A DNA stretch of 64,000 bases from Candidatus Omnitrophota bacterium (GTDB lineage Bacteria; Omnitrophota; Gorgyraeia; Aquiviventales; Aquiviventaceae): the NCBI GenBank assembly GCA_016209275.1, contig JACQWM010000029.1, forward strand, positions 2,692 through 66,691, in the 5' to 3' direction. This document shows positions 3,547 through 51,962 of the stretch, piece by piece. The translations under genes and the position numbers were made by a program. The notes beneath the pieces are model-generated. The model searched no databases and was not told the DNA's origin. It saw only the letters and a program-made list of their open reading frames with translations. Numbering within the stretch: the stretch's first letter is position 1; every line of letters begins with the position of its first letter.

Positions 3547-3588
3547 AACCAGTAGTATGCCGAATCACGCCGGAGATTGCAAAGGGCG

Positions 3589-22302: not shown

Positions 22303-22341
22303 TTTTATTTTAAAAAAATCGCCTGGGGTATTCCCCAGGCG
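22303..22341 (-). terminator. Intrinsic terminator downstream of nfu (hairpin GCCTGGGG-tatt-CCCCAGGC followed on the minus strand by GAUUUUUUUAAAAUAAAA)
   Basis: 8-bp GC stem plus U-tract, read from the sequence. The U-tract overlaps the fur -35. Confidence 0.7.
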
Positions 22342-22351
22342 CTGCGTGCCT

Positions 22352-22383
22352 CAATCACCCAATCACTGAATCACTCAATCACT
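22352..22383. repeat. Four tandem octamers (sense GTGATTGA GTGATTCA GTGATTGG GTGATTGA) overlapping the nfu stop
   Basis: Read directly from the sequence. Confidence 0.6.
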
Positions 22384-22603
22384 GATCAATCGCTTCCACC
22401 CCCGTAATTTCCGGCACCTCAGCGCGGATCGCGCGCTCGATGCCCATCTTCAAGGTCATCGTCGACGACGGGCAGCCGACGCAGGCCCCGATGAGGCGGA
22501 CCTTGACCACGCCGTCCACCACGTCGACGAGCTGGATGTCGCCGCCATCCATCTGGACGGCCGGACGAATGCGATTGATCACCTGTTCTACACGGTCTTT
22601 CAT
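22379..22603 (-). CDS. NifU-C/Nfu-type Fe-S cluster scaffold protein (74 aa)
   Basis: [28 protein letters not shown]...GACVGCPSS CxxC motif. ATGA overlap with the sucD stop. The track ORF is extended upstream without support. Confidence 0.75.
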
Positions 22604-23511
22604 CCTGGTCTCCTTGATGAACTTCCCGTCGCTGGTTTTAAGCTTAGCACATCTTTGACCGCTTGGCCAATGGCGGCGGGGCTTTCCACGATGGTCACAC
22701 CGGCGGCGCGCAGCGTGGCCATCTTCTCCACCGCGGTGCCATGAGCTCCAGCGATGATCGCCCCGGCATGGCCCATCCGCTTTTCTTTCGGTGCCATCCG
22801 CCCCGCGACAAATGCAAAGACCGGTTTCGTCACGTGGGCTTTGATATAGGCGGCGGCCTCCTCTTCTTCCGTGCCACCGATTTCGCCGATCATGACGATA
22901 GCCTCGGTCTGCGGATCCTGTTGCAGCAGCGGCAGCAGATGAACGAAGCTCGTACCTAGCACCGGATCGCCGCCGATCCCAATGCAGGTGGATTGGCCCA
23001 AACCGGCTTGTGTGAGTTGATAGACCGCATCGTACGTCAGCGTCCCGCTGCGCGAGAGGACGGCGACTGATCCCGGCCGGTGGATATAGCCTGGCATGAT
23101 GCCGACCTTGCACGCCCCCGGCGTGATCAACCCTGGGCAATTCGGGCCGATGATGCGAATGGATGTTCCCGCTATTCGGCGACGGATCTTGAGCATGTCG
23201 ATGGTCGGAATGCCCTCGGTAATAATGACGATGAGTCGAAGCCCGGCTTCGATCGCCTCGACCATGGCGTCATAGGCAAATTTCGCCGGCACAAAAATGA
23301 CCGAGGTGTTCGCACCGGTAGCTTGCACGGCTTCCTTGACCGTGTTGAACACTGGGACATTGTGGATTTTCTCGCCGCCCTTCTTTGGCGTGACCCCGGC
23401 CACGACGGAGCCTGGCGCGTATTCCACCATTTTCTCGGTGTGAAAGGCGCCCGCCTGGCCGGTGATGCCCTGCACGACCACCCGTGTATCCTTACCAACT
23501 AAAATGCTCAT
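22600..23511 (-). CDS. sucD: Succinyl-CoA synthetase alpha subunit
   Basis: [24 protein letters not shown]...SRSGTLTYE-like (SRSGTLTYD)...catalytic His region GHAGAII. Confidence 0.9.
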
Positions 23512-23576
23512 ATCAATTTCGTTCCAGGTTCCAGGTTCCAGGTTTGCCGCCAACGTGAAACTTGAAACCTGAAACG

Positions 23577-24758
23577 TTATTTGGCAAGTTCCACGACTTT
23601 GCGGGCGGCGGCTTCGAGCTCATCGACGCTGATCAGGTTCAACCGTTTGGCCTGGGTGAGCAGGCGGCGGCCTTCCTCAACATTCGTCCCCTGCAAGCGG
23701 ACAACGATGGGAACTTTCACGTCGAGTTGCTCGGTCGCATTGAGCAGCCCTTGCGCGATCCAGTCGCAGCGCATGATGCCGCCGAAAATGTTCACCAACA
23801 CGGCTTTCGCCTTCGGATCGGCGAGGATGATCGAAAAGGCGTTGGCCACCTGCTCGACATTCGCTCCGCCGCCCACGTCGAGAAAATTGGCCGGCTCCCC
23901 GCCGCAGAGTTTGATGATGTCGTTCGTCGCCATCGCCAATCCGGCCCCGTTGACCAGGCAGCCGATGTTTCCGTCCAGGCCGACATAGGAAATGCCGATC
24001 TTCGCGGCGTTCAGCTCCAGCGGATGCTCTTGGCTTTCATCGCGCAGGGCCGCGAGCTGCGGATGGCGAAACAGCGCGTTATCATCGAGGGTGACTTTGG
24101 CATCCAGGGCGAGCAACCGCTGATCGCTCGTAATGATCAGCGGGTTGATTTCAATCAAGGAGGTGTCGGCGGAAAGAAACACGTTCCACATGCCGCGGAC
24201 CACGCTCGCACAGGATTCCGTCAGCGCTCCGGCGCACCCTAACGCTGCCGCGAGGCGATCGACCATGGGGTCCTGCACGCCGCCAATGATATCCACCGGC
24301 TCGCGGAGAATCGCCGCAGGCGTCGTCGCCGCGACCTCTTCGATATCCACACCGCCTCGCTGGCTGGCCAGGAACATCGGACGCGCGTTGAAGCGGTCAA
24401 TGGTCAGGGCCAGGTACAACTCCTTGGCCGGCTCAATGCGCTCATCAATGAGAACGGCGGAAACGGGCAGCCCTTGGGGGCCGGTTTGCTTTGTCACGAG
24501 CCGCCGCCCCAGCAAGCCGGCGGATTTCTCAGCGGCTTCTGCCGCGCTGCCGGCCACCAGCACCCCGCCGGCCTTGCCCCGGCCGCCAGCGTGAAGCTGG
24601 GCTTTGATGTTCGCGGCGCACGGCGTGGGATGGCCAAGCTCTCGTCGGAGGGTCTCGTACGCGGCGGAGGCTTCTTGAGGGGTCTTGGCGACATGCCCTC
24701 GCTGGATGGGAATGCCGGCCGAGGCAAAGAGCTGCTTCGCCTGATACTCGTGGAGCTT
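23577..24758 (-). CDS. sucC: Succinyl-CoA synthetase beta subunit
   Basis: [12 protein letters not shown]... ATP-grasp fold; GGRGK. RBS GGAG 8 nt upstream of ATG 24758. The track ORF starts inside REP-like copy C. Confidence 0.9.
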
Positions 24759-24770
24759 CATGCGCGACTC

Positions 24771-24832
24771 CGGCCACTTGGCCACTTGCCTGCCCGCCGA
24801 AGCCTTGGCGGAGGCGGGGCCACTTGGCCACG
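24771..24832. repeat. REP-like element copy C (GGCCACTTGGCCAC ... palindromic core ... GGCCACTTGGCCAC) in the sucC 5' UTR
   Basis: Read directly; a variant of the 14.3 kb and 15.1 kb copies. Confidence 0.6.
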
Positions 24833-24837
24833 CGTCG

Positions 24838-26943
24838 TCATTTGCGTTGAGCGAGGGGTGTCACTTTCAAATCGCGGGGGCCGATGTAGGCGGCGAGCGG
24901 GCGGATGAGGCGGTTGTCGGCGGCCTGCTCAATGATGTGCGCGGACCACCCAGCACTCCGCGCGACCGCAAACATGGTCGTAAACAGCTCGGTGGGAATG
25001 CCCAGGTAGTGCAGCAGCGAGGCGGAATAAAAATCCACGTTGATATAGAGCCCCTTGGCCTTGAAGACCGCTTCCTGCAGCCGCTCGGAAATCTCATACC
25101 ACTTCAACTCGTTGGCGGCCTGGCCCAGCGGCCTGGTGAACGCTTTCAAGTGCTTGGCGCGGGGGTCTTCCCCCTTGTAGACGCGGTGGCCGAAGCCCAT
25201 GAAGCGCTTGTGATCCGCCAGCGTTTTGTGCACGTACGTTTCCACCTGATCCGCGCCGCCGATTTCCAGCAGCATCTCCATCGCCTTGCGGTTCGCCGCG
25301 CCATGCAGCGAGCCCTTCAGCGCCCCGATCGCGCCGGCGACGGCGGAATAGTAGTCGGCGCGCGTGGAGACGATGACGCGCGCGGCAAAGGTGGAGGCAT
25401 TGTAGCTGTGGTCGGCCAAGAGGATGAAATAGGCATCGAGCGCTCGGGCTTGCGGCTCGCTCGGCTCTTCGCCGTGCAGCATATAGAGGAAGTTGGCCGC
25501 ATGAGCCAGGCCGGATTTTGGGGGCACGAGGGGAGCGCCGCTGCGGATGCGGGCGATGGCGGCGACGAGGCTCGACATCTTGGCGATCGTGCGGACGGCC
25601 TGGCGCTGCATCACCTCCGCGGACTCGGCATCGGCTTCCGGATCATCGAGCCCGAGGAATGAGACCGCCGTGCGCAGCAGCCCCATGGGGTCGGCCCGGT
25701 ACGGCAGGCTCTGCAGGCACGCCAGGACTTGCGGCTCCAGAGCGCGCGAAGAGTCAAGCTGCTTGGTCCAATCGGCCAGCTGGCTGCGTGTCGGCAAGGC
25801 GCCAAAGAGGAGCAAATAGCTGACCTCTTCGTATGTGGTCTTGCCGATCAACTCATCGATGTTGTAGCCGCGGTACACCAATTGGCAGCGCTGGCCGTCG
25901 ACATCGGAAATGGCGGTCTCGCCGGCGACGACGCCTTCAAGGCCTTTGGCGATGATCGGCGCAGCCGTCGGCGCGGGCGCGGGCGCGGCCGCGGGAGCCG
26001 CCGGTTTCGCTTGCAGCGCGGCAAGCGCTTGCATCCCCTCGCTGACTTGCCGGGCGGAGGCGGCGAGGGCGGCGTGCTCGGCCTCGCTGAGCGGCAGCTC
26101 GACGACGCGCTCAATGCCATGAGCGCCGAGCTGCACCGGCACGCCGATGCACACATCGCGCAATCCGTATTCACCGTGCAGCAGCGCGCAGGCCGGCAGC
26201 ACCTCATGCGTATCGTTCAGGATCGCCTGCGCCATCAGCACAGCGCTGCTGGCCGGCGCGTAAAAGGCGCTGCCCTGCTTGAGCAGATTGACAATCTCCG
26301 CGCCGCCGTTTTTCGTCCGCTCCAGCATCGCGGCGAGCTCCGCCTCCGGCAGGCGCGAATCAATCGGCTGATGATCCACCTGAATAGAGTGCGGCAGCGG
26401 GACCATGAGATCGCCGTGCGAGCCGAGGACCATCGCTTCGACACTGCGCGGAGCGACTTGCAGCCGCTCCGCGACAAACGCCCGCAGGCGCGCGCTATCC
26501 AAAACCCCGGCCATGCCCATGACGCGCTCGCGGGGAAACTTCGTCTTCTCAATGGCGAGGGCCACCATCATGTCGAGGGGATTCGTCACGACGATGACGA
26601 CGGCCTCCGGGGCCAGCTGCGCGATGCGCTCCGCGATGGGCCCGACGATATTGGCGTTGGCGAGGAGCAGGTCATCCCGCGACATGCCGGGCTTGCGGGC
26701 CAACCCTGCGGTGATGATGGCCAGGCGGCTGCCGGCGAGGGCGGCAAGATCCGTCGTGCCGCGAATCGACACGGAGAACCCCTCGACCGGGGCTGACTCA
26801 AACATGTCAAGGGCTTTGCCCTTGGCTAGCCCATCGACGACGTCAATGAGGGTGATATCCGCGAGGCCTTTGAGGGCGAGCAGGTGGGCCGTGGTGGCCC
26901 CGACTTGTCCAGCGCCAATCACGGTGACACGAGGAAGCGACAT
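24838..26943 (-). CDS. Natural fusion: NAD-dependent malate(/lactate) dehydrogenase (N-terminal, about 310 aa), AP-rich linker, citrate synthase (C-terminal, about 370 aa)
   Basis: One 701-aa ORF. N-terminal GAGQVGATTA, VTNPLD and GSHGDLMVP (LDH/MDH). Linker AKPAAPAAAPAPAPTAAPIIAKG. C-terminal GLEGVVAGETAIS..., SLHGAANRKAMEML and GFGHRVYKGEDPRA (citrate synthase signature). Confidence 0.8.
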   Translation of the reverse strand: MSLPRVTVIGAGQVGATTAHLLALKGLADITLIDVVDGLAKGKALDMFESAPVEGFSVSIRGTTDLAALAGSRLAIITAGLARKPGMSRDDLLLANANIVGPIAERIAQLAPEAVVIVVTNPLDMMVALAIEKTKFPRERVMGMAGVLDSARLRAFVAERLQVAPRSVEAMVLGSHGDLMVPLPHSIQVDHQPIDSRLPEAELAAMLERTKNGGAEIVNLLKQGSAFYAPASSAVLMAQAILNDTHEVLPACALLHGEYGLRDVCIGVPVQLGAHGIERVVELPLSEAEHAALAASARQVSEGMQALAALQAKPAAPAAAPAPAPTAAPIIAKGLEGVVAGETAISDVDGQRCQLVYRGYNIDELIGKTTYEEVSYLLLFGALPTRSQLADWTKQLDSSRALEPQVLACLQSLPYRADPMGLLRTAVSFLGLDDPEADAESAEVMQRQAVRTIAKMSSLVAAIARIRSGAPLVPPKSGLAHAANFLYMLHGEEPSEPQARALDAYFILLADHSYNASTFAARVIVSTRADYYSAVAGAIGALKGSLHGAANRKAMEMLLEIGGADQVETYVHKTLADHKRFMGFGHRVYKGEDPRAKHLKAFTRPLGQAANELKWYEISERLQEAVFKAKGLYINVDFYSASLLHYLGIPTELFTTMFAVARSAGWSAHIIEQAADNRLIRPLAAYIGPRDLKVTPLAQRK

Positions 26944-26949
26944 GCGGAC

Positions 26950-27276
26950 TTACAATTTCGTTAGGACGTGAACTCCCAGCCCGATACAGGACATGCCCAC
27001 GAGGGTCCACCCGAACCATGCGGCGGCGGCCCACAACCATGAGCAGCCCATCGCCAGCTGGGCAAATCCTCCCACAAACCGCGCATCCCAGCCTTCCAGA
27101 ACACCGGTGGATCTTGAGAGGATCCGCCCATGGACGCGCTGAGCGTCATGCACCATGTGCCGGGCCAGCAGCACCCCAATCCCGACCGACAACACGCCGA
27201 TCGTCACAATGAGGCCGCTAACCACGTAGGTAGGCATCGCTGAAAGATATTGCCAGTGTAGCAAAGCCGCTTCCAA
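26950..27276 (-). CDS. Small membrane protein (3 TM)
   Basis: 108-aa hydrophobic ORF with a consistent minus-strand context. Confidence 0.4.
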   Translation of the reverse strand: MEAALLHWQYLSAMPTYVVSGLIVTIGVLSVGIGVLLARHMVHDAQRVHGRILSRSTGVLEGWDARFVGGFAQLAMGCSWLWAAAAWFGWTLVGMSCIGLGVHVLTKL

Positions 27277-27342
27277 GCGTCAACCTGTCGTGGACGATAG
27301 ATGGGCGCTGGTCCTGGACACATGCAGCCTAAGATGTGCAGA

Positions 27343-27433
27343 CTAAGGTAGCGCAGGTTTAAACCTGCGCTACCTTAGCTGCGGTTTTTGCTGACAGCTG
27401 ATCGCTGAGGGCTAGCTGTCAGTTATTTTTCTT
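27343..27433 (+). terminator. Two tandem perfect stem-loops, each followed by a T-run on the plus strand (CTAAGGTAGCGCAGG-TTTAAA-CCTGCGCTACCTTAG ctgcggttttt; CTGACAGCT-N14-AGCTGTCAG ttattttt)
   Basis: Read from the sequence. Located between two minus-strand genes. Function (bidirectional terminator or sRNA 3' end) unresolved. Confidence 0.4.
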
Positions 27434-27881
27434 GCCACAACGAGGACAGCTTCTGACGCAGCGTGGCTTTCGCGCCAGCCTGGGCGAGCATCGACTGCCA
27501 CTGCACCCCCATCGCTTCCAGCACGGCGTCGGCGGCCTTGTCCATCTTGGGTCCCCACGCCTTCTGAAGCTTTTGCTTCAAGATATCAACCTGGACTTCT
27601 TTCATCGCGGTGAAAAACGCGCAGGACCACATGCCGGTTGCACAGTCGATCGGATCGCCGCTGCACCCTGGCGTGCCGCAAGGGCAGCCCTTGCCTGATG
27701 TTGGGCAGCAATCCTGCGATGAAGTTTCCACGTCACACGACCCTGAGTCACATCGTCCAGACATTGTTTCGCTCCTTTGGCTTCCCGTGGAGACAGTCCC
27801 CACGGGGACTGTCTCCATTACGCGCCGATGACGCCATCTCCCATGACACCCACCTCCTTTCTGCGCTGGTTGTAATACCAA
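27423..27881 (-). CDS. Small Cys-rich protein (11 Cys in about 45 aa) with a helical C-terminal half; likely starts at MSGRCDSGSCD (about 27762)
   Basis: ...CDSGSCDVETSSQDCCPTSGKGCPCGTPGCSGDPIDC...; adjacent to TetR. Confidence 0.4.
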   Translation of the reverse strand: MVLQPAQKGGGCHGRWRHRRVMETVPVGTVSTGSQRSETMSGRCDSGSCDVETSSQDCCPTSGKGCPCGTPGCSGDPIDCATGMWSCAFFTAMKEVQVDILKQKLQKAWGPKMDKAADAVLEAMGVQWQSMLAQAGAKATLRQKLSSLWQEK

Positions 27882-27921: not shown

Positions 27922-28539
27922 TTATCGCGGCGTCCTCTCAAACAACGACTGCACATACCGCCGAAGGTGGCCCAAGCTCTGCTCTTCAATAGACGGATCG
28001 CGCTTGGCCTTCGCCAAGATCTTCGCCCCTTCCATAATGGCAATAAAGTGGTCGGCCAGGCTTTGCGTATCAATGGCCGCTTTCGGGGCGTGCTTCGCCT
28101 TGGCCGCATCCAAATCCTGCTTGAGCCACTGCGCCCAGCGCGCAAACGCTTTCGCGCACTGATCCCGCATGGCCGGGTTCGTTTCCGAGAGCTCCTGCGC
28201 AAACGTGCCCAACAAACACCCTTGCTCTGTCCCGCACTGTGCGGCCATCTTGATGCCGAAATCAATGAAGGCGTACACGCGCCGCAGCGGATCGACGTCA
28301 ACCCCGCCAACCGCCGAGCGCATCTGTTCGCCGGCATGACGGCAGAACCGCTCGAGCAATTCCCTGCCAAGATGCTCCTTGCTCTCAAAATAGTGGAAGA
28401 AGCTGCCCTTCGTCAGTTTGGCGGCTTCGCAGATTTCATCCACGGTCGTGGCGGCATAGCCTTGGGCGAGCATCAGCTTCTCGGCGGCCTCGAGGAGGCG
28501 ATCCTTGGTCGGCGAATCAGTCAGCGCGGCTTTAGCCAT
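27922..28539 (-). CDS. TetR-family transcriptional regulator
   Basis: LLEAAEKLMLAQGYAATTVDEICEAAKLTKGSFFHYFESKE HTH. Confidence 0.85.
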   Translation of the reverse strand: MAKAALTDSPTKDRLLEAAEKLMLAQGYAATTVDEICEAAKLTKGSFFHYFESKEHLGRELLERFCRHAGEQMRSAVGGVDVDPLRRVYAFIDFGIKMAAQCGTEQGCLLGTFAQELSETNPAMRDQCAKAFARWAQWLKQDLDAAKAKHAPKAAIDTQSLADHFIAIMEGAKILAKAKRDPSIEEQSLGHLRRYVQSLFERTPR

Positions 28540-28611: not shown

Positions 28612-29640
28612 TCAATAGCTGGTCGGTTCCAATCGCACCTTGCCCCGGAAGATCCAGTAAATGCTCACCGTATACGCCAGCACCATCGGCATGCCCAGCA
28701 GCGCGATGGCCAGCATGATGCGCAACGTCTTCGGCGAGGAGGCGGCATTATAAATCGTGAGGCTGTGCTCAGGCAACGGGTTGGAGAGCACGATATTCGG
28801 ATAGATCCCGACCCCGAAGAGGGCCAGCAGCGCGGCGATGGCGGCACAGGAAGACAGAAACGCTCGGAACTCCCTGCCGAAATAGATTTCCCTGGGGATA
28901 TTGGCGATCGCGAGCATATTCAATACCGGCAGCGCAAACAGCCAGGGGTGTTCCCGGATGTTCACCGGCATATGCGGCATGTAGACCAGTGTGGCCATGG
29001 TCGTGGCGGCATAGCAGATGATGAAGAAAATCATCGCGCGCTGCACCCAGCTTTTGGCCCGGCGCTGCAGTTTGCCTTCGGTTTTCATGACGAGATAAAT
29101 GGCGCCGTGCATCTGAAAAAGTGCGAGGGTCGTGATACCAACCAGCAGCGCGTACGGATTGAGCAAGCCGAGAAATGAGCCGGCGAATTCATGCTCGGCG
29201 GTCAGCGGCACACCGCGCGCGATATTCCCCAAGGCGATCCCAATGAGCAGGCTGCACAGGATGCTGCTTGCGCTAAAACTCATATCCCACATCGCGCGCC
29301 ACCATCGCATGGGCTGCTTGCTGCGAAACTCAATCGCCACCGCGCGGAAGATCAGCGCGGCGAGCAGCAGCATGAGCGCCGTGTAAAATCCTGAGAAGAC
29401 CGTCGCGTACACCATGGGAAAGGCAGCGAAGAGCGCACCGCCCCCGGTCACGAGCCACACTTCATTGCCGTCCCAGACCGGGCCGATGGCATTGAGCATG
29501 AGCCGCCGCTCCTCATCGGTCTTGCTGAACAGATGCAGCGACCCGACCCCCAAATCAAAGCCATCCAGCATGGCATAGCCGGTCAGCAACGCGCCGACGA
29601 GCCAGAACCAGAGGGTGGGAAGATCGAAACTAAAAGGCAT
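28612..29640 (-). CDS. cydB: Cytochrome bd ubiquinol oxidase subunit II
   Basis: 342-aa polytopic protein; [33 protein letters not shown]. Confidence 0.85.
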   Translation of the reverse strand: MPFSFDLPTLWFWLVGALLTGYAMLDGFDLGVGSLHLFSKTDEERRLMLNAIGPVWDGNEVWLVTGGGALFAAFPMVYATVFSGFYTALMLLLAALIFRAVAIEFRSKQPMRWWRAMWDMSFSASSILCSLLIGIALGNIARGVPLTAEHEFAGSFLGLLNPYALLVGITTLALFQMHGAIYLVMKTEGKLQRRAKSWVQRAMIFFIICYAATTMATLVYMPHMPVNIREHPWLFALPVLNMLAIANIPREIYFGREFRAFLSSCAAIAALLALFGVGIYPNIVLSNPLPEHSLTIYNAASSPKTLRIMLAIALLGMPMVLAYTVSIYWIFRGKVRLEPTSY

Positions 29641-30982
29641 GGCGGGTGTAGACGCCGGAGGCTTCGTCTTCCGCCGGTCCCCGGCGGATTTTCTGATCCA
29701 AGAGAAAAATAAACAGCGCGAAGAGCAGGACGTAGATCACGGTAAACATGATCAGCGACGACAATACCGCCGAGGCGCTCACGACTTTCGAAACCCCCTC
29801 GCTCGTGCGCATCAGTCCATAGACGATCCACGGCTGCCGGCCGATTTCCGCCGCGGCCCAGCCGAGCTGATTGGCGATCTGCGGCCCGAGCACCGAGAAG
29901 ACAAAGCACCATAAGAGCCAGCGTCGATCGAACAGGCTGCCGCGCCACAGATGCCACCATCCTAAGACGCTCAAGCCCAACAAGGCGCCCCCAATGATCA
30001 CCATCCCGTGAAACGCTTGAAAGGTGACATTCACCGGCGGCCAGTCGCCAGGCGGCGCGGACTCCAGACCGGTGAGAGGATGCGTCGGATCCCCGGAGAC
30101 GAGCCAGCTCAACAACCCCGGCACCGCTATGCCGTGCACGCGCCGCTGCGTTTCATCCACCCAGCCGATCAAGTGCAGCGGAGCCGGCGCTGAGGCTGAA
30201 TAATGGCCCTCAAACGCCGCCAACTTCAGCGGTTGATGGCGAGCCACCACCACACCGCTCGCATGCCCGGTCAGCACCTGCAAGATGGAAGCGACGAGTG
30301 CCGCGGTCAACCCGATGCGCATTGAGGATTTGGCGAAGGCCAGATGTCGGCGCTTCAACAAATAATACGCGCTGACACTCAGCACGAGAAACGCCCCGGC
30401 CTGCCACGCCCCCATCAGCACGTGAGCCAGGCGCTGCATCGATGAAGGATTAAACACCATCGCCCAAAAATCAGTGATCTCTGCTCGGGCCATTCCACCA
30501 TGGTCCACAATATGAAATCCCGCTGGGGTTTGCATCCAGGAGTTGGCGACGACGATCCACACCGCGCTGAACATCGAGCCGAGGGCGACCATGACGGTGG
30601 AGAAAAAATGCATCCGGGGGCTGACGCGATTCCACCCGAAGATCAGCACCGCGAGAAACCCTGACTCGAGAAAAAAGGCGAAAATCCCCTCGGCCGCCAG
30701 CGCACTGCCAAACACATCGCCTACGTAGCGCGAATACGTCGCCCAATTGGTGCCGAACTCAAACTCCATCACGATGCCCGTCGCCACCCCCATGGCAAAG
30801 GTCAGCGCAAAAATATTCACCCAAAACTTGGCCATCTGATGATAGAGCGGCTTGCGCGTTTTCAGCCACAACCCTTCCATGATCACGAGGATGACGCCGA
30901 GGCCGATGGAGAGCGGCGGGTAGAGATAGTGGAAGCCGATCGTCAGCGCAAACTGCAGCCTGGACAGCCACACGACATCCAT
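29630..30982 (-). CDS. cydA: Cytochrome bd ubiquinol oxidase subunit I
   Basis: 450 aa; ...[12 protein letters not shown]...MEFEFGTNW...Q-loop. Confidence 0.9.
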
Positions 30983-31783: not shown

Positions 31784-32698
31784 ATGAGTGTTCCGCACCC
31801 AATTCCATATCAAGGTAGCAAACGCGCTCTTGCCGCCGCCATTCTCTCCTACTTTCCACCCAACACAAACAGGCTTGTAGAACCTTTTGCCGGATCAGCT
31901 GCCATTTCACTCGCCGCTGCCTATCACAGAAAAGCAAGCCGTTTTCTTCTGAATGATACGAATCCTGCTCTGATGAGTTTGTGGCGAGGAATCATTAACC
32001 AGCCGGAGTCAATTGCTCGGGAGTACCGGAAGCTTTGGGAGGCTCAGCTAGGACAAGAGAGAGGGTACTACGACCTGATTAGACAGCGGTTCAATACGAT
32101 GCAACGGCCAGACCATTTCTTATATTTACTTGCACGGTGCGTCAAGGCTTCGGTTCGCTACAATTCCTATGGGGAGTTCAATCAAAGCCCAGATAATCGC
32201 AGGAAGGGCACTAACCCAGTAACGATGCGGGCACACGTCGTAAGGGCATCTCGGCTCCTCGCCGACAAGACACAAATTACGTGCAGGGACTACTTAGATG
32301 TACTTCGAGACGTTAAACGGGATGATGTTATCTATATGGATCCTCCATATCAAGGGGTTTGTGGTGAGAGGGATCAGAGATACATTAGCAAAGTTGCGTT
32401 TGATTTTTTTGTCAAAGCTCTTCAGAACCTTAACGACAGGAAGATCTTTTATATTTTGAGTTACGATGGACGGACTGGTTCGAAAAAATACGGGCGTCCC
32501 CTTCCGAAGAATCTTACTCTAACGCACATCGAAGTCGATGCCGGAAGATCAACTCAATCAACTTTGCTCGGGCGAAACGCAAGAACTTATGAATCCATCT
32601 ATTTGTCTCCTTCATTGGTCGCCGTGCTTGAGAAGTTAACTCCGACAACTCAGCCTCTTGAGCCTCAAGAACAGCTGATCTTCGCAGAGGCCTTATGA
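31784..32698 (+). CDS. Dam-type N6-adenine DNA methyltransferase (D12 class)
   Basis: YQGSKR, EPFAGSAA (motif I), DPPY (motif IV). Lower GC than the surroundings. Confidence 0.8.
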   Translation: MSVPHPIPYQGSKRALAAAILSYFPPNTNRLVEPFAGSAAISLAAAYHRKASRFLLNDTNPALMSLWRGIINQPESIAREYRKLWEAQLGQERGYYDLIRQRFNTMQRPDHFLYLLARCVKASVRYNSYGEFNQSPDNRRKGTNPVTMRAHVVRASRLLADKTQITCRDYLDVLRDVKRDDVIYMDPPYQGVCGERDQRYISKVAFDFFVKALQNLNDRKIFYILSYDGRTGSKKYGRPLPKNLTLTHIEVDAGRSTQSTLLGRNARTYESIYLSPSLVAVLEKLTPTTQPLEPQEQLIFAEAL

Positions 32699-33426
32699 GG
32701 AAAGGACAGAAACTTCCTGCGAAATTCTTAGAGGCGCTAAAAGCCGTTACGAACAAGCGCCCAAGAATCGTTATTGAGCATATCCTCAAACATGGCTTTA
32801 TAACCACAGAAGAGCTTGAGTCAAAATATGGATATAGCCATCCTCCGAGAGCCGCGCGCGACGTACGGGAACAAGGAATTCCGCTTGAGACCGTTCGAGT
32901 CAAGAGTAAGGGGGGTCGGAGCATCGCAGCTTACAGGTTTGCCGATTTCAGTAAAGTTCGAGAAGACCGAATAGACGGCAGGCAAGTATTTTCGAAGCTA
33001 TTTAAGAAAAAGCTGGTCAAGGAATCCAGTTGCCGCTGTTATATCTGTCTGGAGAAGTACGAAGAAAGATACCTCCAGGTAGATCATCGAATTCCGTATG
33101 AAGTATCTGGGGATGCGGCATCCGAAATGCGACATCCTCGTGAGTACATGCTGATCTGTGGTTCCTGTAATAGAGCGAAATCGTGGTCGTGTGAGCATTG
33201 TTCAAATTGGCTGGAACAAAAATCTCCCCAAGTCTGTCTCTCTTGCTACTGGGCCAGCCCAGAGTCTTATAAACACATAGCCCTGAGACGCATCAGAAGA
33301 CTTGATGTGATCTGGACTGACCATGAAGTGGAGGTTTACGAGCGCCTTAAGAGGCGCACCGAAATTGTTCAACAACATATGCCAGACTACGTCAAGGCTG
33401 TGATCAAGAAACACTTGGACGCATAA
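32695..33426 (+). CDS. HNH-family endonuclease (probable restriction partner)
   Basis: CRCYICLEKY...LQVDHRIPY...CGSCNRAKS (HNH/zinc-finger); ATGA overlap with the MTase. Confidence 0.65.
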   Translation: MRKGQKLPAKFLEALKAVTNKRPRIVIEHILKHGFITTEELESKYGYSHPPRAARDVREQGIPLETVRVKSKGGRSIAAYRFADFSKVREDRIDGRQVFSKLFKKKLVKESSCRCYICLEKYEERYLQVDHRIPYEVSGDAASEMRHPREYMLICGSCNRAKSWSCEHCSNWLEQKSPQVCLSCYWASPESYKHIALRRIRRLDVIWTDHEVEVYERLKRRTEIVQQHMPDYVKAVIKKHLDA

Positions 33427-33501
33427 GAAGCAGGGTTTGGTTAGGTTAGTAGGCAACCGCTGGATGATTGGGCCCAAGTGATTTTCGAGGAGGTATCGGG
33501 A

Positions 33502-33711
33502 ATGAGCGGCGGGCAAATCCGAAATCGATGTCATGCTTGCGGCGGGAGTGGAGTGCTGGCCCCTGCCATGCCCTCGTGTAAGATTCTGGCGCGGAAGGAG
33601 CCGTGGATCGTGGTCGAGAAATGCGACGCTTGCGATCGATACGTTGATGATTTGACCGCAGCCTCATCTACCTTTTCTTTGCCTCACAAAAGCCCGTTGC
33701 GAAGACCATAG
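33502..33711 (+). CDS. Small zinc-ribbon protein (CxxC...C...CxxC)
   Basis: MSGGQIRNRCHACGGSG...CKIL...VEKCDACDRY; strong RBS GAGGAGG 8 nt upstream. Confidence 0.45.
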   Translation: MSGGQIRNRCHACGGSGVLAPAMPSCKILARKEPWIVVEKCDACDRYVDDLTAASSTFSLPHKSPLRRP

Positions 33712-33751
33712 TTGATCATATCTTCCGAAAGTATAAGAACAAGGGAAAGTA

Positions 33752-34540
33752 ATGGCAGAATATTCATCAATTGAATGGACGGATGCGACCTGGAATCCTG
33801 TAACCGGTTGCACAAAGGTTAGCCCGGGGTGCAAGCACTGCTATGCGGAGGCATTCGCGGAGCGATGGCGGGGTATCAAGGGGCATCCCTACGAGCAGGG
33901 GTTTAATCTAAGACTTTGGCCGGAGAGACTAGAGTTGCCGCTTCGCTGGAAGGAGCGGCGAAAGATTTTCGTCAACTCTATGTCTGATCTGTTTCACAAG
34001 GATGTGCCAGACGAGTTTATCGGTAAGGTCTTCGATGTCATGCGACAGGCGAACTGGCACATTTTTCAGCTTTTGACAAAGCGTCCTGAGCGGATGAGAG
34101 CGTGGTCAAACACATACTTCTGCTCGAGCGATTATCCCCCGAACGGCAAACACGTCTGGCCGGAGCACGTCTGGGCAGGCGTATCTGTGGAAACGCAGGC
34201 CTACGTCTCACGCATTCGTGATCTGCAACACGTTCCGGCGAAGATTCGCTTTCTCTCAATAGAGCCGATGCTTGGGCCAGTGGAGCTCGATAGCTCGCTG
34301 CTTGAAGGGATACATTGGGTCATCGTCGGTGGCGAGAGCGGTCCTTCTGCGCGTCCTATGAATCCTGAATGGGTCTACGCAATCCTGAAACAATGCAGAC
34401 AGCATTGCGTTAAGTTTTTCTTCAAGCAATGGGGTGCCCACACGCCCGACGGACGACGGGTAGGCAAAAAAGCTGCCGGAAGACTCCTCAAGGGACGGAC
34501 ATGGGACGAGATGCCAGTGGAGCTAACGTTAGTGAGCTAA
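33752..34540 (+). CDS. Phage Gp37/Gp68-family (PF07505-like) three-Cys-motif protein
   Basis: [33 protein letters not shown]... N-terminal signature and ...VIVGGESGP. Assignment from memory. Confidence 0.55.
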
Positions 34541-35151: not shown

Positions 35152-36200
35152 ATCCTCGGGAGCTGCTCGCCGCTGAACAAATCGAGCATCCGTTGAGAGC
35201 CAATGGCGTTGTGAACTGTCACCTGCGATGGGGCGGCATCCGCCACATACCCGATGAGGGTGGCATCGCGCCCCAATGGATGCGAGCGCATCAGCTCCAA
35301 CGCCCGCGAGGCGTCATCGGCGGCGACAAAGGCCACGCACCGTCCTTCATTCGCCACATACAGCGGATCCAGCCCTAACAACTCGCACGCGCCGCGGACT
35401 TCTTCTTGGATCGGCAGCACGGTTTCATCGATGTCGATAGAGACCTTGGCAGCGTGCGCGATTTCAATCAGGCCGCTGGCCAGCCCGCCGCGCGTCAAAT
35501 CGCGCAGGCAATGCACCTGCATCTTCGCCGCCAGCAGCCGTGCGACCAGATCGGCCAGGGGTGCTGTGTCGCTTTCGATGGTCGTCTCGAAATTCAATCC
35601 CTCGCGCACCGCCATGATCGCAATCCCATGACGCCCCAGATCACCCGAGAGCAGCACTGCATCCCCTGCCCGCACTTGACTCGGAGCAATCACCACACCG
35701 GCAGGCACGACTCCGACACCTGAGGTGTTAATGAACAACCCGTCGCCCTTGCCCTTCTCGACCACTTTGGTGTCACCGGTGACGACCGAGACGTTGGCCG
35801 ACTTCGCCGCGTGCTGAATCGACTGAATCACGCGCCAGAGGGTCTCCATCGGCAGCCCTTCTTCTAGAATAAACCCAAGACTCAGCCAGAGTGGGCAAGC
35901 CCCGCACATCGCCAAATCATTCACCGTGCCGTTGACCGCAAGCCGGCCAATGTCGCCACCGGGAAAGATCAACGGCTGGACGACGTACGAGTCGGTGGTG
36001 AAGGCCAGCCGAACCCCCTGAAGATCCATCACGGCTCCATCATGCCGCATCCCAAGCCAGGGATTATTGAACGCAGGCAGCATGAGGCGCTCAATCAATT
36101 GTTGCGTGAGCTTGCCGCCGCCGCCATGGCCCAAGAGCACAGTTGGGTAGTCTGTCAGCGGAATGGGGCAGGCCAGCGGAAATCCTGTCGTGAGGCTCAT
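35145..36200 (-). CDS. hypE: Hydrogenase maturation protein HypE
   Basis: AIR-synthase-like fold; C-terminal ...PRIC. ATGA overlap with the hypD stop. The track ORF extends to 36374. Confidence 0.8.
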
Positions 36201-37309
36201 GCGACGGCTTCCGATGGTGCGGCGGCCGGCCGCCGATACCGATAGTACGCCGCGCAGGCTCCCTCCGATGAGACCATGGTGGCTCCCAGGGGACGCTCCG
36301 GCGTGCATCGTGTTCCGAACGCCGGACATTCGATCGGCTTCTTGATGCCTTGCAGGATCAGGCCGCTGATGCACTCAGAGGATTCCTCCGCGCTCAGCGT
36401 TGCGACGTCGAACCGCAGCGCCGCATCAAACGCGTCGTAGGGCGCTCGCAATCCGAGCCCGCTGCGGGCAATCGGGCCGATGCCTCGCCATTTGCGCGGC
36501 ACGATCTCGAAGACTTCGCGGATCGCCCACATCGCCTGCGCATTGCCCTCGCGCCGCACCGCGCGCGTGTATTGGTTTTCGACCTCGGCCCGGCCCTCTT
36601 CAAGCTGCGCAACACACATCAGCACGCCGTGCAGGATATCCAACGGCTCAAACCCGGTGACGACGATTGGCACGCGATACCTGGCGGCGATCGGCTCATA
36701 CTCGGTGTACCCCATGATGGCGCAGACATGGCCGGCCGCCAGAAATCCTTGGACGGTGTTGTGAGGCGAGGAGAGCACGGCCTCCATCGCCGGTGGAACC
36801 AGCACATGCGAAACGAGCATCGAAAAATTCGTCAGATGCTGCTGCGAAGCCAACACCACCGCCATCGCGGTTGAGGGCGCGGTGGTTTCAAATCCCACGG
36901 CGAAAAAGACCACTTCGCGATCCGGATGCTCTCGGGCAAGGGCGACCGCATCCACCGGGGAATAGACGATGCGCACCTCCGCCCCGGCAGCTTTCGCCGC
37001 AAACAGATCCTGGGACGTGCCCGGCACGCGCAGCATGTCGCCGAAGCTGCAGAAGATCACCTCGGGCCGCTGCGCAATGGCGATGGCTTGATCGACGAGC
37101 TCAACCGACGTCACGCACACCGGGCAGCCCGGCCCGTGCACCAATGTGATGAGCTTCGGCAGCAACTCATCGATACCGAAGCGCACGATGGCATGGGTCT
37201 GGCCGCCGCAGACTTCCATGAGCGTCCAAGGGCGTTTGGTGATCTTCGTAATCGCCGAAGCGATGCCACGGATGGCTTTCGCATCGCGATACTCGTCAAG
37301 AAATCGCAT
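36197..37309 (-). CDS. hypD: Hydrogenase maturation protein HypD
   Basis: MRFLDEYRD...CGGQTH...GPGCPVC motifs. Confidence 0.9.
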
Positions 37310-37556
37310 CGCGCGGTGCGAGCTCCTTCAGTTCATCGATCTGCTGCAAATAGTCAAATACGCGGGTGGCTTCTGCCTCATTCACCTTGCTGATGGCGAA
37401 TCCCACATGCACGATGACAAAGTCGCCCACGTGGGCGTCTGGCACAAACGACAGGTTCACCTGTTTCGTGATCCCGCCGAAACTCACGACACCGGCGCGA
37501 GCCACCCCTGCTGATTCCGTAATCTGAAGAATTTTCCCAGGAACGCCAAGGCACAT
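37296..37556 (-). CDS. hypC: Hydrogenase assembly chaperone HypC
   Basis: [10 protein letters not shown]-terminus; about 86 aa. Confidence 0.8.
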
Positions 37557-39934
37557 CACGACACCGATCGGCTTCGTGCGACCGCGGCCAACTGCCCAAG
37601 CGCAATACCACCATCGTTGGGAGGTACCTGACGGTGCCAAAATGGTTCAAGGTCTTCGCGGCGCAAGCGAAGAATGGCGCGCTCAGTCAGCACGCGATTT
37701 TGGAAACAGCCGCCGCTGAGCACAACGCGCGGCAATCCAAGATGATGCGCGACCGTGACGATCGTTTCTGCCAACGCATTGTGGAACTTCGCGGCGATGA
37801 TGGCGGGCGGCACAAGCATTTTAAGATCCGAAAGAATCCCTCTGACCAGCGGCTCCCAATCCAGCTGCTGATGGAAATTCGCCTCGTGGAATATCGTGCA
37901 AGGGATCAATGGCATGGAATAGCTGTCGTCTGTCTCAGCGCGCTCGGCGGCATGCTCAAGCGCCATCGCGGCTTGGCCTTCGAATTGACGTCCGTGGTGC
38001 AGATTGAGCAGCGACGCGACCGCGTCAAACAGGCGGCCGATGCTCGTGGTCCACGGCGATTGCACACCGCGCGAAAGCATGGCGGCCAGTACCGCGCGCT
38101 CGCGATCGGTAAGGCTTGCGATGGGTGCCAGCCGCGGGAATAGCGTTAGCGTATCAGGCTCCATCGCGATGAGCAATCCTAACGCGCTGCGGCGCGGCTC
38201 GCGGATCGCCTGCTCCCCGCCCGGCAGCCGAAACGGCCGAAGGTGCGCTACCCGCTCAACTTTCCTGTCATCGACGGCAAAATATTCTCCGCCCCAGATC
38301 ATGCCGTCAGAACCCAATCCTGTGCCGTCCCAAGCTACGCCAAGCACAGCGTCGGAGAGCTCATTATCCGCCATGCACGAGAGCACATGCGCCACGTGAT
38401 GCTGGATCGGCACAACCGGCCGCGCCTGCCGCTTCGCCCACCGGCTGGACTCGTAGTCTGGATGCAGATCACACGCGATCATCGTTGGCATCGTGGCATA
38501 AAAGGTTTGCAACGATTCGATGGCGCGCGTGAAGCCGTCAATCGCCTGCGGCGTTTCCAAATCCCCAAGATGCTGGCTCAGCACCGCCTGGTCTCCGACG
38601 GCGATGGCCACGGTATTTTTCAGATGCGCGCCGACCGCAAGACATGGTGGTGGCTCACCAGCAAGATTCACCGGCAGCGGCGCGTAGCCGCGCGCTCGGC
38701 GCAACAGCAGCGGCCGATTGGCCACGATACGCACCACCGAATCATCCACATGGCGCGCAATCGGCCGGTCATGCACCAGCCAGACATCCGCCACCGAGGC
38801 TAATCGCTGCAAGGCCTCGCGCTCATCGGTGCAGATCGGCTCTTCCGACAGATTGCCGCTAGTCGCCACGACTGCGAATTCTAGCTCGCGCAGCAGCAGA
38901 TGATGGAGTGCTGTCATCGGCAGCATCACGCCAAGCCATGGATTCTTGGGTGCTACCGCCTCAGCGATCTGGATGTGTTCTCTTCGGCGACGGACCAAGA
39001 CGATCGGAGCCACGGTCGACTGGAGCACGTACCGTTCATCTTTTGTGACCTCGGCATGCGCTTCAATCATCTCCATTGACGGATACATGAGCGCAAACGG
39101 CTTGGCCTCCCGGCCTTTGCGCAAGCGCAACCGCTGCACCGCCTTTTCATTTCGCGCATCCGCCATCAGATGAAAACCGCCAAGCCCTTTGACCGCCACG
39201 ATGCGGCCGTCGCGAATCGCCTGCGCTGCGCGGATGAGCGCCTCATCGCGCGATGCGATCACTCCGCCGGCCGCATCCCAAAGCTGAAGCTGCGGGCCGC
39301 ATGCCGGGCACGCATTCGGCTCGGCATGGAACCGGCGATTCATCGGATCGTCGTATTCCGCGCGGCAATCATTGCACATGGCAAACCGCCGCATGGTGGT
39401 CTTCGCCCGGTCATACGGCAATTGCTCAATGATCGAAAAGCGCGGCCCGCAATGCGTGCAGTTAATGAACGGATAGCGAAACCGGCGATTGGACGGATCA
39501 CAACATTCGACGAGGCACGCCTCGCACGTCGCCAGATCCGGCAGCACGACCGCTGTCGGTGCGCCTTGGTCATCGCTTGGCCGAATAACAAACTGCGCCC
39601 CGCCCTCTGCGCCAATGGATTGCGCCTCGATGGTCTCAATCGCCGCCGGGGCTGGCAGCTCAGCGCCTAGCCGCTGTTGAAATGTTTCCAACTGCTCAGG
39701 CGAGCCTTCAATTTCAAGCGATATGCCGTGGCGGGTATTGACGACCCATCCGGAGAGCCGCAACTGCGTCGCTAACGTGTAGACAAACGGACGGAATCCC
39801 ACCCCCTGCACCGCACCGGTAATGGTCAGTCGCCGGCGCTGGAGCCCCACGTGCTTGCCCGTGGGGCGGAACCGCTCCGAAGCCTCCGGCGAAGGAGGGT
39901 GAATCGCAGGCTGTGTCAACGTGGTTGAAGTCAT
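37556..39934 (-). CDS. hypF: Carbamoyltransferase HypF
   Basis: Acylphosphatase domain, two CxxC zinc fingers (CEACLVEC...CTHCGPRF, CNDC...CPACGP), YrdC and Kae1-like domains. Track ORF start 39982; M17 at 39934 preferred. Confidence 0.9.
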   Translation of the reverse strand: MTSTTLTQPAIHPPSPEASERFRPTGKHVGLQRRRLTITGAVQGVGFRPFVYTLATQLRLSGWVVNTRHGISLEIEGSPEQLETFQQRLGAELPAPAAIETIEAQSIGAEGGAQFVIRPSDDQGAPTAVVLPDLATCEACLVECCDPSNRRFRYPFINCTHCGPRFSIIEQLPYDRAKTTMRRFAMCNDCRAEYDDPMNRRFHAEPNACPACGPQLQLWDAAGGVIASRDEALIRAAQAIRDGRIVAVKGLGGFHLMADARNEKAVQRLRLRKGREAKPFALMYPSMEMIEAHAEVTKDERYVLQSTVAPIVLVRRRREHIQIAEAVAPKNPWLGVMLPMTALHHLLLRELEFAVVATSGNLSEEPICTDEREALQRLASVADVWLVHDRPIARHVDDSVVRIVANRPLLLRRARGYAPLPVNLAGEPPPCLAVGAHLKNTVAIAVGDQAVLSQHLGDLETPQAIDGFTRAIESLQTFYATMPTMIACDLHPDYESSRWAKRQARPVVPIQHHVAHVLSCMADNELSDAVLGVAWDGTGLGSDGMIWGGEYFAVDDRKVERVAHLRPFRLPGGEQAIREPRRSALGLLIAMEPDTLTLFPRLAPIASLTDRERAVLAAMLSRGVQSPWTTSIGRLFDAVASLLNLHHGRQFEGQAAMALEHAAERAETDDSYSMPLIPCTIFHEANFHQQLDWEPLVRGILSDLKMLVPPAIIAAKFHNALAETIVTVAHHLGLPRVVLSGGCFQNRVLTERAILRLRREDLEPFWHRQVPPNDGGIALGQLAAVARSRSVS

Positions 39935-39938
39935 GAGC

Positions 39939-40634
39939 CTACCTCCGAAGAAGCCTGCGCGCCAGTTCGTGGACTTCCTCATTGGCGAGTGCTTTCAGGC
40001 GCTTGCTGACCGTTCTGTAGAAATACGTTTTCTCCGTATTGGTCATCTCTGCGCCCTCCGCTCGCTTTCGTAACAACTCTTTTTGACGAGGCGTGAAGAG
40101 CTCGGAGAGCAAGAGTTCAAATTCCAAGGCATGCGTCTTCTCCCTGTCCTCCACTCCCTCCCGCGCGTTAACATAATACGTCCGGAAGGTATTTTTCAGT
40201 CGTTCCGTGGACAGCTCAAAACCGTTCATGGCCAGCGGCTCTGATTTCAGGAAGTGTGATTCGACATTCCGAAGGGTGTCCTCTCCATTCTTGCACTTGA
40301 AGAGCAGCGTCCGCGCACGCTCTTGCAAACTCTTCTCCAGGCCAAACAACCGAAAGAGGACGTAACTGAGCGCTAATAAACGGGCGAGACGCTGTGACCT
40401 CATCACCCCCAGCGCTTTCTCTGGGTTCCAATTGGGTGACTCCCATCGCAGATTCGTCTTTTCACGCAGGGCGTTCAGGAGAACGACTGCGAAGCCCTCT
40501 ACGATGCGGCTTTCCCGCTGTCGCAACAGGCGTTCGAGCACCGTTTCAGGATCGCTGCGACGCACGGGCCTCATGAGGGGGTAACCATACGCAGCCAATT
40601 GTTCTACGAGCGCGTGTGTATCATGCGGCGTCAT
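39939..40634 (-). CDS. Hypothetical 231-aa protein with a C-terminal HTH-like segment (LFTPRQKELLRKRAEGAEMTNTEKTYFYRTVSKRLKAL); lower GC
   Basis: No recognisable family. ATGA-coupled to an upstream 57-aa ORF. Confidence 0.4.
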   Translation of the reverse strand: MTPHDTHALVEQLAAYGYPLMRPVRRSDPETVLERLLRQRESRIVEGFAVVLLNALREKTNLRWESPNWNPEKALGVMRSQRLARLLALSYVLFRLFGLEKSLQERARTLLFKCKNGEDTLRNVESHFLKSEPLAMNGFELSTERLKNTFRTYYVNAREGVEDREKTHALEFELLLSELFTPRQKELLRKRAEGAEMTNTEKTYFYRTVSKRLKALANEEVHELARRLLRR

Positions 40635-40804
40635 TTCGAAACACCCCTCGCCTTGGTCAGGAAGTGCTTGAGATTCTTGATGACACGCTCCTCGCTGACC
40701 TCATAGCGTGCGGTTTCTCGATATCGTTCCTCGAGCGCTCGAAGACTGACAGCTTCGTGCTCGAGCAATGTAAGACACGGGCATGTATATTTTTTGGCAC
40801 TCAT
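40631..40804 (-). CDS. Hypothetical 57-aa protein (MSAKKYTCPCLTLLEHEAVSLRALEERYRETARYEV...)
   Basis: By-eye minus-strand translation (not in the ORF track). Its TGA overlaps the ATG of the 231-aa gene. Confidence 0.35.
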   Translation of the reverse strand: MSAKKYTCPCLTLLEHEAVSLRALEERYRETARYEVSEERVIKNLKHFLTKARGVSK

Positions 40805-40954
40805 CTGTTCGCTCGACGTGCAATGACCTCCAGATGTTGCTGTGGTGTCTGGTAGTCCAGCGATTCATGGATACGCTCAGTTTTTGGAAAATCCTGGACG
40901 GTGCTCATGTTACAGATAGCTCAGGCGGAGTCAGGAGTTTCAAGGCGGCGGTCA

Positions 40955-42160: not shown

Positions 42161-42214
42161 AGATAGTTAGCTCTATGAGTAATTTTACTCAATTGTGTGA
42201 GAAATATCAAGCTG

Positions 42215-42673
42215 CTACAGGACTTCGCGCGCGATCGATGTGACGACGCGGTCAATGGCCTGGGTAACCGATGGGCTGATGGTCGTACCGGCGTCGAACC
42301 GTTCGCCTTCGATGCCGTAGACAATCAGCTCGGCCGGCAGCCGGCCCATCGCCCGCGCCAGCTCCACCGCCTCAGCCACTCCAATGGCATGTGTCGACGA
42401 GGACCCGAAGACCTGAACCGGCAGCGGCTGATCATGCGCGGTAAAGCGATGCACGGTGCCGGCGGCCGAGCCTGATCGCACCGCGTCAATCAGAATGACG
42501 CGCGCTGTCTTGGGCCACTGCGCCATGAGGCTGATCCCTTCGCCGCCGGCTTCCTGAATGATGGCCGCTTTCCCCACCAGCGGCTGCAGCCGCCGCGCAG
42601 CCAGCAGACCTGCGGCGTCATCGCCGGCATACGCGTTGCCGATCCCAATAATGACCGTGTGTTTAGCGTTCAA
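42215..42673 (-). CDS. Hydrogenase maturation endopeptidase (HyaD/HybD/HoxW family)
   Basis: [16 protein letters not shown]... 152 aa. Confidence 0.8.
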
Positions 42674-44718: not shown

Positions 44719-44719
44719 A

Positions 44720-45589: not shown

Positions 45590-45617
45590 CGGATCCTCGC
45601 GCGTTGCGATCGTGGGA

Positions 45618-49258: not shown

Positions 49259-49267
49259 ATCCTTGAA

Positions 49268-51933: not shown

Positions 51934-51962
51934 GGCGCCTCACGCGAACCGGATGGCGAGTA

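Follow-up and report, generated by a model that had tools for sequence, protein, structure and literature searches.

A single open reading frame joining malate dehydrogenase and short-type citrate synthase in an Omnitrophota genome

The window analysed here is a stretch of 64,000 nucleotides (nt) of contig JACQWM010000029.1 from Candidatus Omnitrophota bacterium, an uncultured organism of groundwater type; the gene studied lies on its minus strand and joins a malate dehydrogenase (MDH; gene mdh) to a citrate synthase (CS). The ORF listing shows a single open reading frame (ORF; 24838..26943, stop codon 24838-24840) with an ATG start, 701 amino acids (aa) and zero internal stops. MDH occupies residues 1 to ~308 and is followed by an Ala/Pro linker of ~24 residues and by a short (type II) CS at residues 333-701. 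All motifs quoted in the initial annotation, including its AP-rich linker, were located in the protein: GAGQVG at 10-15, VTNPLD at 119-124, GSHGD at 174-178, AKPAAPAAAPAPAPTAAPII at 312-331 and GFGHRVY at 583-589. The protein is 100% identical to MBI4597618.1, which stems from a metagenome-assembled genome (MAG) of Candidatus Omnitrophota, is encoded on a 67-kb contig and is named at NCBI only 'malate dehydrogenase [Candidatus Omnitrophota bacterium]'. This public label overlooks the CS half. MBI4597618.1 forms a 90% cluster by itself and is known from one contig.

In one frame the ORF encodes an MDH and a short-type CS, both complete, as the initial annotation had proposed; Pfam and NCBIfam profiles cover both domains in full. 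For the MDH domain (26020..26943, minus strand; bounds from Pfam, TIGR01763 and alignments with 7aob and 1uxi), Pfam searches detected Ldh_1_N at residues 5-143 (1.3e-35) and Ldh_1_C at 148-305 (3.4e-30), both profiles being essentially fully covered. The bacterial MDH model TIGR01763 (MalateDH_bact) scored 375.6 bits, above its curated equivalog cut-off of 351.85, with residues 5-307 on positions 3-305 of 305 of the profile. Residues 1-304 align to residues 1-304 of the solved MDH 7aob (309 aa), and the stretches GAGQVG (10-15), ARKPGMSRDD (82-91), LDSARLR (148-154) and GSHGD (174-178) match the MDHs 7aob and 1uxi residue for residue. The key residues R83 and R89 (lactate dehydrogenase (LDH) positions 102 and 109), D149, R152 and H176 are present. 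LDH position 102 separates MDH, which has Arg, from LDH, which has Gln. An L-LDH identity of the N-terminal domain, named in the initial annotation as a reason to doubt the fusion, was rejected: TIGR01771 scored 226.8, below its cut-off of 303.55, and PRK00066 217.6, below 339; Arg stands at the specificity position, and the 16 best matches in a search of solved structures are all named MDH. By sequence, the N-terminal domain is thus an LDH-like bacterial NAD-dependent MDH and not an LDH.

The CS domain (24841..25947, minus strand) was delimited with Pfam, TIGR01800 and alignments with 1aj8 and 1iom. Pfam Citrate_synt (PF00285) matches residues 334-682 (9.3e-131, 436.5 bits, profile positions 1-356 of 357), and TIGR01800 (cit_synth_II) scored 468.4 bits against a cut-off of 421.3, with residues 333-700 on positions 1-368 of 368. 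Against the 371-aa CS of Pyrococcus furiosus (1aj8), the CS half aligns over residues 3-370. The catalytic residues are kept, namely the His in LHGAAN (546-551), the His in GFGHRVY (583-589) and the Asp in NVDFYS (635-640), which align to the HG, GHRVY and NVD motifs of 1aj8 and of the T. thermophilus CS 1iom. TIGR01800 is a subfamily model spanning 2-methylcitrate synthase and citrate synthase II, and it was the sole CS-side model above its cut-off; all citrate synthase and bifunctional equivalog models stayed below theirs. Citryl-CoA lyase was rejected as an identity for this domain, as the corresponding models cover only residues 482-680 and fell below their cut-offs (e.g. 128.8 versus 212).

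The linker (AALQAKPAAPAAAPAPAPTAAPIIA; ~residues 309-332; 25948..26019, minus strand) was bounded by alignments with the solved structures. It contains no in-frame stop. The other two frames read through the linker as Arg/Pro-rich nonsense and hold a single stop, a TGA lying within the conserved CS codons for KGLEG. No in-frame ATG, GTG or TTG was found between residues 304 and 355. Tandem Repeats Finder detected a tandem repeat of period 12 (3.8 copies) at 25958..26003 on the minus strand, with a core at 25970-25995 of period 6 (4.3 copies), in which GCGCCC on the coding strand is translated into Ala-Pro repeats. The junction region has a GC content of ~72%. A missed stop or frameshift between the domains, which the initial annotation had named as a possible flaw, is absent from the assembled sequence. 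Likewise, a hidden stop or frameshift that a 1-nt insertion or deletion could repair was rejected, there being no in-frame stop, no CS start between residues 304 and 355 and no usable stop elsewhere.

The operon runs, all on the minus strand, from a small 108-aa ORF through the fusion (mdh::CS), its first large gene, to sucC, sucD, a nifU-like gene and a terminator. The 108-aa ORF (26950..27283) has no Pfam match and ends 6 nt ahead of the fusion ATG; a sigma70-like promoter (27283-27255) ahead of it is a consensus match only. Downstream of the fusion lie sucC, encoding succinyl-CoA (coenzyme A) ligase beta (23577..24785; NF001913 512.9 bits, cut-off 370; Pfam), for which the ATG at 24761 is likely the true start, and sucD, encoding the alpha subunit (22600..23553; NF004230 435.7 bits, cut-off 336; Pfam). 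The description of the fusion as flanked by sucCD is imprecise: both genes are downstream, with the 108-aa ORF upstream. The last gene (22379..22603), which overlaps the sucD stop by 4 nt, encodes a 74-aa NifU-like protein, an identity taken from its counterpart (PF01106, NifU) after sucD in the related locus L001. The operon ends at a strong terminator-like hairpin of 9 bp (base pairs), 8 of them GC, with a T-run (22320..22341); the number of terminator-like sites in the region equals the shuffle expectation, and the argument for this one rests on its position, not its occurrence. Malate-CoA ligase and citryl-CoA synthetase were rejected as identities of sucCD, as the malate-CoA ligase model was below its cut-off and the succinyl-CoA ligase equivalogs were passed; the same equivalogs led us to reject a citrate-cleavage module with citryl-CoA synthetase.

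To place the fusion among its relatives, we collected related loci by scans of species-representative genomes and JGI metagenomes, followed by tblastn and frame analysis. In all 41 distinct related loci mdh is followed by the CS gene within 124 nt, and in none are the two fused. A 4-nt ATGA stop/start overlap links them in 26 of the 41 loci; in the others, the two share a frame with one stop or lie -1 to 124 nt apart. L001, the nearest relative that was examined, has an identical operon (mdh-CS-sucC-sucD-nifU). The best 120 relatives of each half (240 in total) are 68-76% identical and all stand alone, with lengths of 311-400 aa. Searches of this kind apparently list only proteins of ~0.55-1.8 times the query length, far longer ones being left out: with the 701-aa query no match shorter than 385 aa was listed, and with the half-length queries the identical 701-aa protein was not. 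A sibling genome of at least 90% identity, fused or unfused, was not found in the collections searched, where the best matches reached 75% for the CS (P0218) and 76% for the MDH (P0317). Among the 5.8 billion clusters covered by a word-indexed search, no further MDH-CS fusion was detected. A phmmer scan run exhaustively over 1.84 billion representatives, a set that did not include the query protein itself and in which fusions could hide as cluster members, gave no two-domain match among its best 150, the top hit (375 bits) covering one half only. The expectation that such a fusion is uncommon was thus borne out, and the search for orthologous fusions proposed with it yielded none.

Other fused ORFs containing an MDH or a CS were seen in the protein collection (P0112, P0148, P0204, P0036, P0037, P0065, P0151 and P0074). 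Fusions of MDH with an aminotransferase, ICDH, aconitase or SucC are each singletons at 90% clustering, a CS-phosphate propanoyltransferase ORF has 3 cluster members, and a sigma70-CS ORF has 5, from genomes of 6-9 Mb; the last of these fusions is probably real.

A neighbour-joining tree of concatenated MDH and CS sequences placed the window inside the clade, on a terminal branch. As it is nested in a clade of separate genes, the fused state is derived, and no second case of it is known so far. The nearest relatives are the same for both halves (L001, 75%/74%; L087, 75%/74%), and with the same identity on either side a chimeric assembly of two organisms at the repeat was rejected. Of 202 columns invariant in 34 relatives, the window protein alters 2, compared with 0-4 in the relatives and 14 in one outlier; on this count neither domain shows a sign of decay after fusion.

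A second clade of loci (L023, L055, L123, L125, L127, L133 and L134; labelled Omnitrophota or Planctomycetia) carries the two genes in the reversed order CS-mdh with a gap of 20-110 nt; its CS sequences are 36-38% and its MDH sequences 55-58% identical to those of the window, and in three loci one stop is all that separates the two same-frame genes. The genes seem to have become tightly linked independently here. Taken together, the clade-wide adjacency, the ATGA coupling and the reverse-order clade indicate selection for co-expression. That fusions are so scarce suggests that linking the enzymes covalently brings little further benefit or is costly, for instance through mismatched oligomer symmetry.

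Comparison of the junction with the ends of the separate proteins revealed counterparts for both sides of the linker. Its start, 'LQAKPAAP...', resembles the MDH C-terminal tail of L100 (...LAAKPAVATTP*), and its end, ...PAPAPTAAPIIAKGLEG, resembles the CS N-termini of L084 (MSTPAPTATPAPISKGLEG), L094 (MTPTGPAPAPIVHKGLEG) and L102 (MSTEPSPIIAKGLDG). A spacer of 20 residues corresponds to the 60-nt spacing in same-frame relatives. On this comparison the linker combines an MDH C-tail with a CS N-tail, both homologous to those of the relatives, and is not new sequence. In L089 (~1996-4198) the mdh-CS spacer of 115 nt contains a tandem repeat of AT-rich units (AAAATC / GATTTT), whereas the junctions of the other loci are rich in GC.

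The comparisons suggest a route to the fusion. In the Omnitrophota clade of this genome, mdh and a short-type CS gene stand side by side at the head of an mdh-CS-sucC-sucD-nifU operon, mostly in translational coupling via an ATGA overlap; separate genes are the ancestral state. Such an overlap sets the CS frame off from that of mdh, so that fusing the genes needs a 2-bp deletion, or a 1-bp insertion together with loss of the stop. A small deletion at the overlap would have removed the mdh stop and the CS start and brought the genes in frame, in the simplest case by loss of 'AT' from ...CCATGACG..., and the flexible MDH C-tail and the Pro/Ala/Thr-rich CS N-tail would have become the ~24-residue Ala/Pro linker. 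The assembled junction reads GCGCCCGCGCCGACGGCTGCGCCGATCATCGCC, and the two-gene forms that are two bases longer read CCATGACG or CCATGATC. Re-insertion of 'AT' at CCG|ACG gives an MDH ending in ...APAP* and a CS starting with MTAAPIIAKGLEG, and re-insertion at CCG|ATC gives a CS starting with MIIAKGLEG; the restored termini are in both cases plausible beside the MDH and CS ends of the relatives.

We consider a genuine, lineage-specific gene fusion the probable explanation of the ORF. The same two bases may instead have been lost in assembly or consensus calling within the GC-rich repeat stretch, the true genome carrying separate ATGA-overlapping genes; this we regard as unlikely. An error of this kind would look identical, since 'AT' at CCG|ACG or CCG|ATC restores the canonical overlap, and the junction adjoins the 6/12-nt tandem repeat in a region of high GC content. 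Several further points weigh against a genuine fusion. It has been seen once, as a singleton beside 41 distinct unfused relatives, the nearest relatives of either half are only 75-76% identical, and nothing independent confirms it or points to its persistence over evolutionary time. Singleton ORFs in which MDH is fused to a neighbouring gene occur elsewhere in the protein collection, so that sporadic fused ORFs, whether genuine or artefacts, are not rare. A fusion could be hampered by the differing symmetries of MDH, a dimer or tetramer, and CS, a dimer, and that it is so rare among hundreds of relatives speaks against a strong advantage in general. Against an artefact, a 2-bp deletion would be unusual for a short-read assembly, which the accession series suggests this to be, and the rest of the 64-kb window contains no broken genes; long intact ORFs make up ~90% of it, with several ordinary 4-nt gene overlaps. 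An error in repeat number within the period-6 array changes the length by whole units, which leaves the frame intact, and cannot itself fuse the genes. That a single 'AT' insertion restores ATGA was rejected as proof of error: G|A codon junctions make up 6.4% of the junctions in the gene, ~1.4 are expected by chance among the 21 linker junctions and 3 were counted by eye, so that being one step from ATGA is not diagnostic. No ATG or TGA remnant is left at the junction, and the change of only 2 of the 202 invariant columns reflects normal constraint.

Further genes were annotated elsewhere in the window. Between the operon and a gene for a TetR regulator (27922-28539) upstream of it lies a Cys-rich ORF of 152 aa without Pfam match (27423-27881, minus strand; CDSGSCD..CCPTSGKGCPCGTPGC..). 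Next to the TetR gene, two adjacent hydrophobic ORFs of 450 and 342 aa (28612-30982, minus strand) were assigned by eye to subunits I and II of cytochrome bd oxidase; these putative genes would point to microaerobic respiration. The plus strand carries an ORF resembling DNA methyltransferases, with a DPPY motif (31784-32698), and after it two ORFs (to 34540) with a third-position GC content of 0.49-0.61, versus ~0.75 elsewhere, and the region 31784-34540 is probably a horizontally acquired restriction-modification island. Genes resembling those of a multi-subunit cytoplasmic [NiFe] hydrogenase extend over 36197-47217 on the minus strand and comprise hypD (36197-37309), hypF (37556-39982), the large subunit (42663-43946), an NAD-binding/Fe-S subunit (44720-45679) and a 4Fe-4S subunit (46066-47217). 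A nitrous-oxide (N2O) reductase cluster at 48422-54056 on the minus strand contains a permease gene (48422-49258), an ABC ATPase gene (49268-50095), nosD (50092-51933) and a nosZ-like gene with nos_propeller and cupredoxin domains (51963-54056), and its presence suggests that this Omnitrophota MAG may respire N2O. The window also encodes Fur, LexA and a TonB-dependent receptor.

The predicted product of the fused gene would be bifunctional, oxidising malate with NAD+ to oxaloacetate and NADH and then condensing oxaloacetate with acetyl-CoA to citrate and CoA. The MDH reaction is highly unfavourable and oxaloacetate occurs free only at very low levels, so that flux is pulled by a coupled CS. 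The fusion would set a 1:1 stoichiometry and tether the producer of oxaloacetate to its consumer, the exergonic CS step pulling the unfavourable MDH step, and, by extension from engineered fusions, the tether may in effect 'hard-wire' an oxaloacetate channel. LDH-like MDHs mostly form dimers or tetramers and short CSs form dimers; the predicted product is an MDH dimer or tetramer carrying CS dimers, and an MDH tetramer bearing two CS dimers could be one closed solution. Production as one chain, the oligomeric state, a kinetic benefit and true channelling, as opposed to simple co-localisation, are what we infer from the sequence.

Two other readings accept the fusion and differ in what it does. 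If the C-terminal domain preferred propionyl-CoA to acetyl-CoA and were mainly a 2-methylcitrate synthase of propionate metabolism, the protein would not be an MDH-CS pair of the tricarboxylic acid (TCA) cycle. The model scores leave room for this, as only the TIGR01800 subfamily model passed and the citrate synthase and bifunctional equivalogs did not, and the methylcitrate synthases 3hwk, 3o8j and 3tqg are among the good structural matches. The best solved matches, however, are the bona fide citrate synthases 1aj8 and 1iom, and no prpB, prpD or acnD-type genes were seen in the mdh-CS-sucC-sucD-nifU operon of the window and its relatives. This operon context, with mdh and sucCD and without prp genes, favours a predicted CS over a 2-methylcitrate synthase. 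As a methylcitrate synthase likewise consumes oxaloacetate, the logic of the pairing would survive in either case, and we consider this reading very improbable. The other reading reverses the direction: in a reductive mode, the oxidative TCA cycle running backwards, CS would cleave citrate and the tethered MDH would reduce oxaloacetate to malate, pulling the cleavage. Mall et al. (2018) reportedly found CS to be reversible in vivo in some anaerobes. The multi-subunit [NiFe] hydrogenase of the window, with hypD and hypF, is consistent with this mode, as H2 could supply reductant, and so is a groundwater study which proposes that Omnitrophota run truncated TCA modules in reverse (PMC13014828). 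On the other side, 2-oxoglutarate:ferredoxin oxidoreductase, fumarate reductase and pyruvate:ferredoxin oxidoreductase were not seen among those ORFs of the window that were scanned, and the cytochrome bd oxidase and N2O reductase genes fit a respiratory, oxidative metabolism. The direction of a cycle cannot be read from sequence; we hold the reductive mode, which nothing in the window specifically supports, to be improbable and prefer the malate-to-citrate direction. A further, speculative view, which we put forward as a rather unlikely possibility, is that the ORF encodes a covalent MDH-CS metabolon, the first natural one known. It would mark where a drive towards coupling across the clade of groundwater Omnitrophota has led, a drive visible in the adjacency of the genes in every relative found, in the ATGA overlap of most and in the CS-mdh order, 20-110 nt apart, of a second clade. 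It may have been selected since tiny cells hold few free oxaloacetate molecules, which makes direct hand-off important; either direction of the cycle would be possible.

Comparison with known systems begins with the separate mdh-CS pairs of Omnitrophota (L001, L005-L013, L087-L103 and others), which share domains of 68-76% identity, the same operon and Pro/Ala/Ser/Thr-rich junction tails with the fusion and differ in being two polypeptides. One fused copy among hundreds of close relatives and billions of proteins suggests that selection acts on co-expression. In the citZ-icd-mdh operon of Bacillota, CS and MDH are likewise co-transcribed and their domains are 44-53% identical to those of the window; in contrast, CS comes first, icd second and mdh third, CS and mdh lying ~1.4-1.7 kb apart, and the two were never adjacent or fused in the loci seen. 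The E2 chains of 2-oxo-acid dehydrogenases contain low-complexity (Ala-Pro)n linkers of ~20-30 residues, which act as extended flexible tethers. The linker of the fusion is like them in composition only, without homology, and at the third-position GC content of ~0.8 in this genome an Ala/Pro composition also arises easily from GC-rich repeats.

The hand-off of oxaloacetate from MDH to CS is the textbook metabolon, the physiological reality of which is still debated (PMC11461322); part of the support for it comes from engineered fusions. The mitochondrial MDH-CS metabolon comprises the same two sequential reactions sharing oxaloacetate and has the same thermodynamic rationale; it forms transiently, under regulation, and relies on complementary electrostatic surfaces, whereas the tether described here would be covalent. 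In the literature searched, including the 2024 review PMC11461322, no natural MDH-CS fusion is described, only engineered ones. These are the yeast CIT1-MDH1 (Lindbladh et al. 1994) and the porcine CS-mMDH (Shatalin et al. 1999), both cited in PMC11461322; they were active, cut the transient time and shielded oxaloacetate from a competing aminotransferase (PMC11461322). They resemble the Omnitrophota protein in carrying both enzymes on one polypeptide, and differ from it in being laboratory constructs of mitochondrial, eukaryotic-type enzymes, whereas the protein described here combines a bacterial LDH-like MDH with a short type II CS. The engineered fusions reportedly place CS before MDH, joined by very short linkers; here MDH comes first and CS follows after a linker of ~24 residues of Ala/Pro. 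Each domain is an ordinary member of its family and the fusion of neighbouring genes for sequential steps is well known; it is the architecture that is new. If the fusion is real, it would provide a stable bacterial complex of fixed stoichiometry, ready to hand for testing oxaloacetate channelling by structure and kinetics, with cryo-EM and transient-time measurements, and its natural occurrence would demonstrate that evolution is able to make the move that the engineers made.

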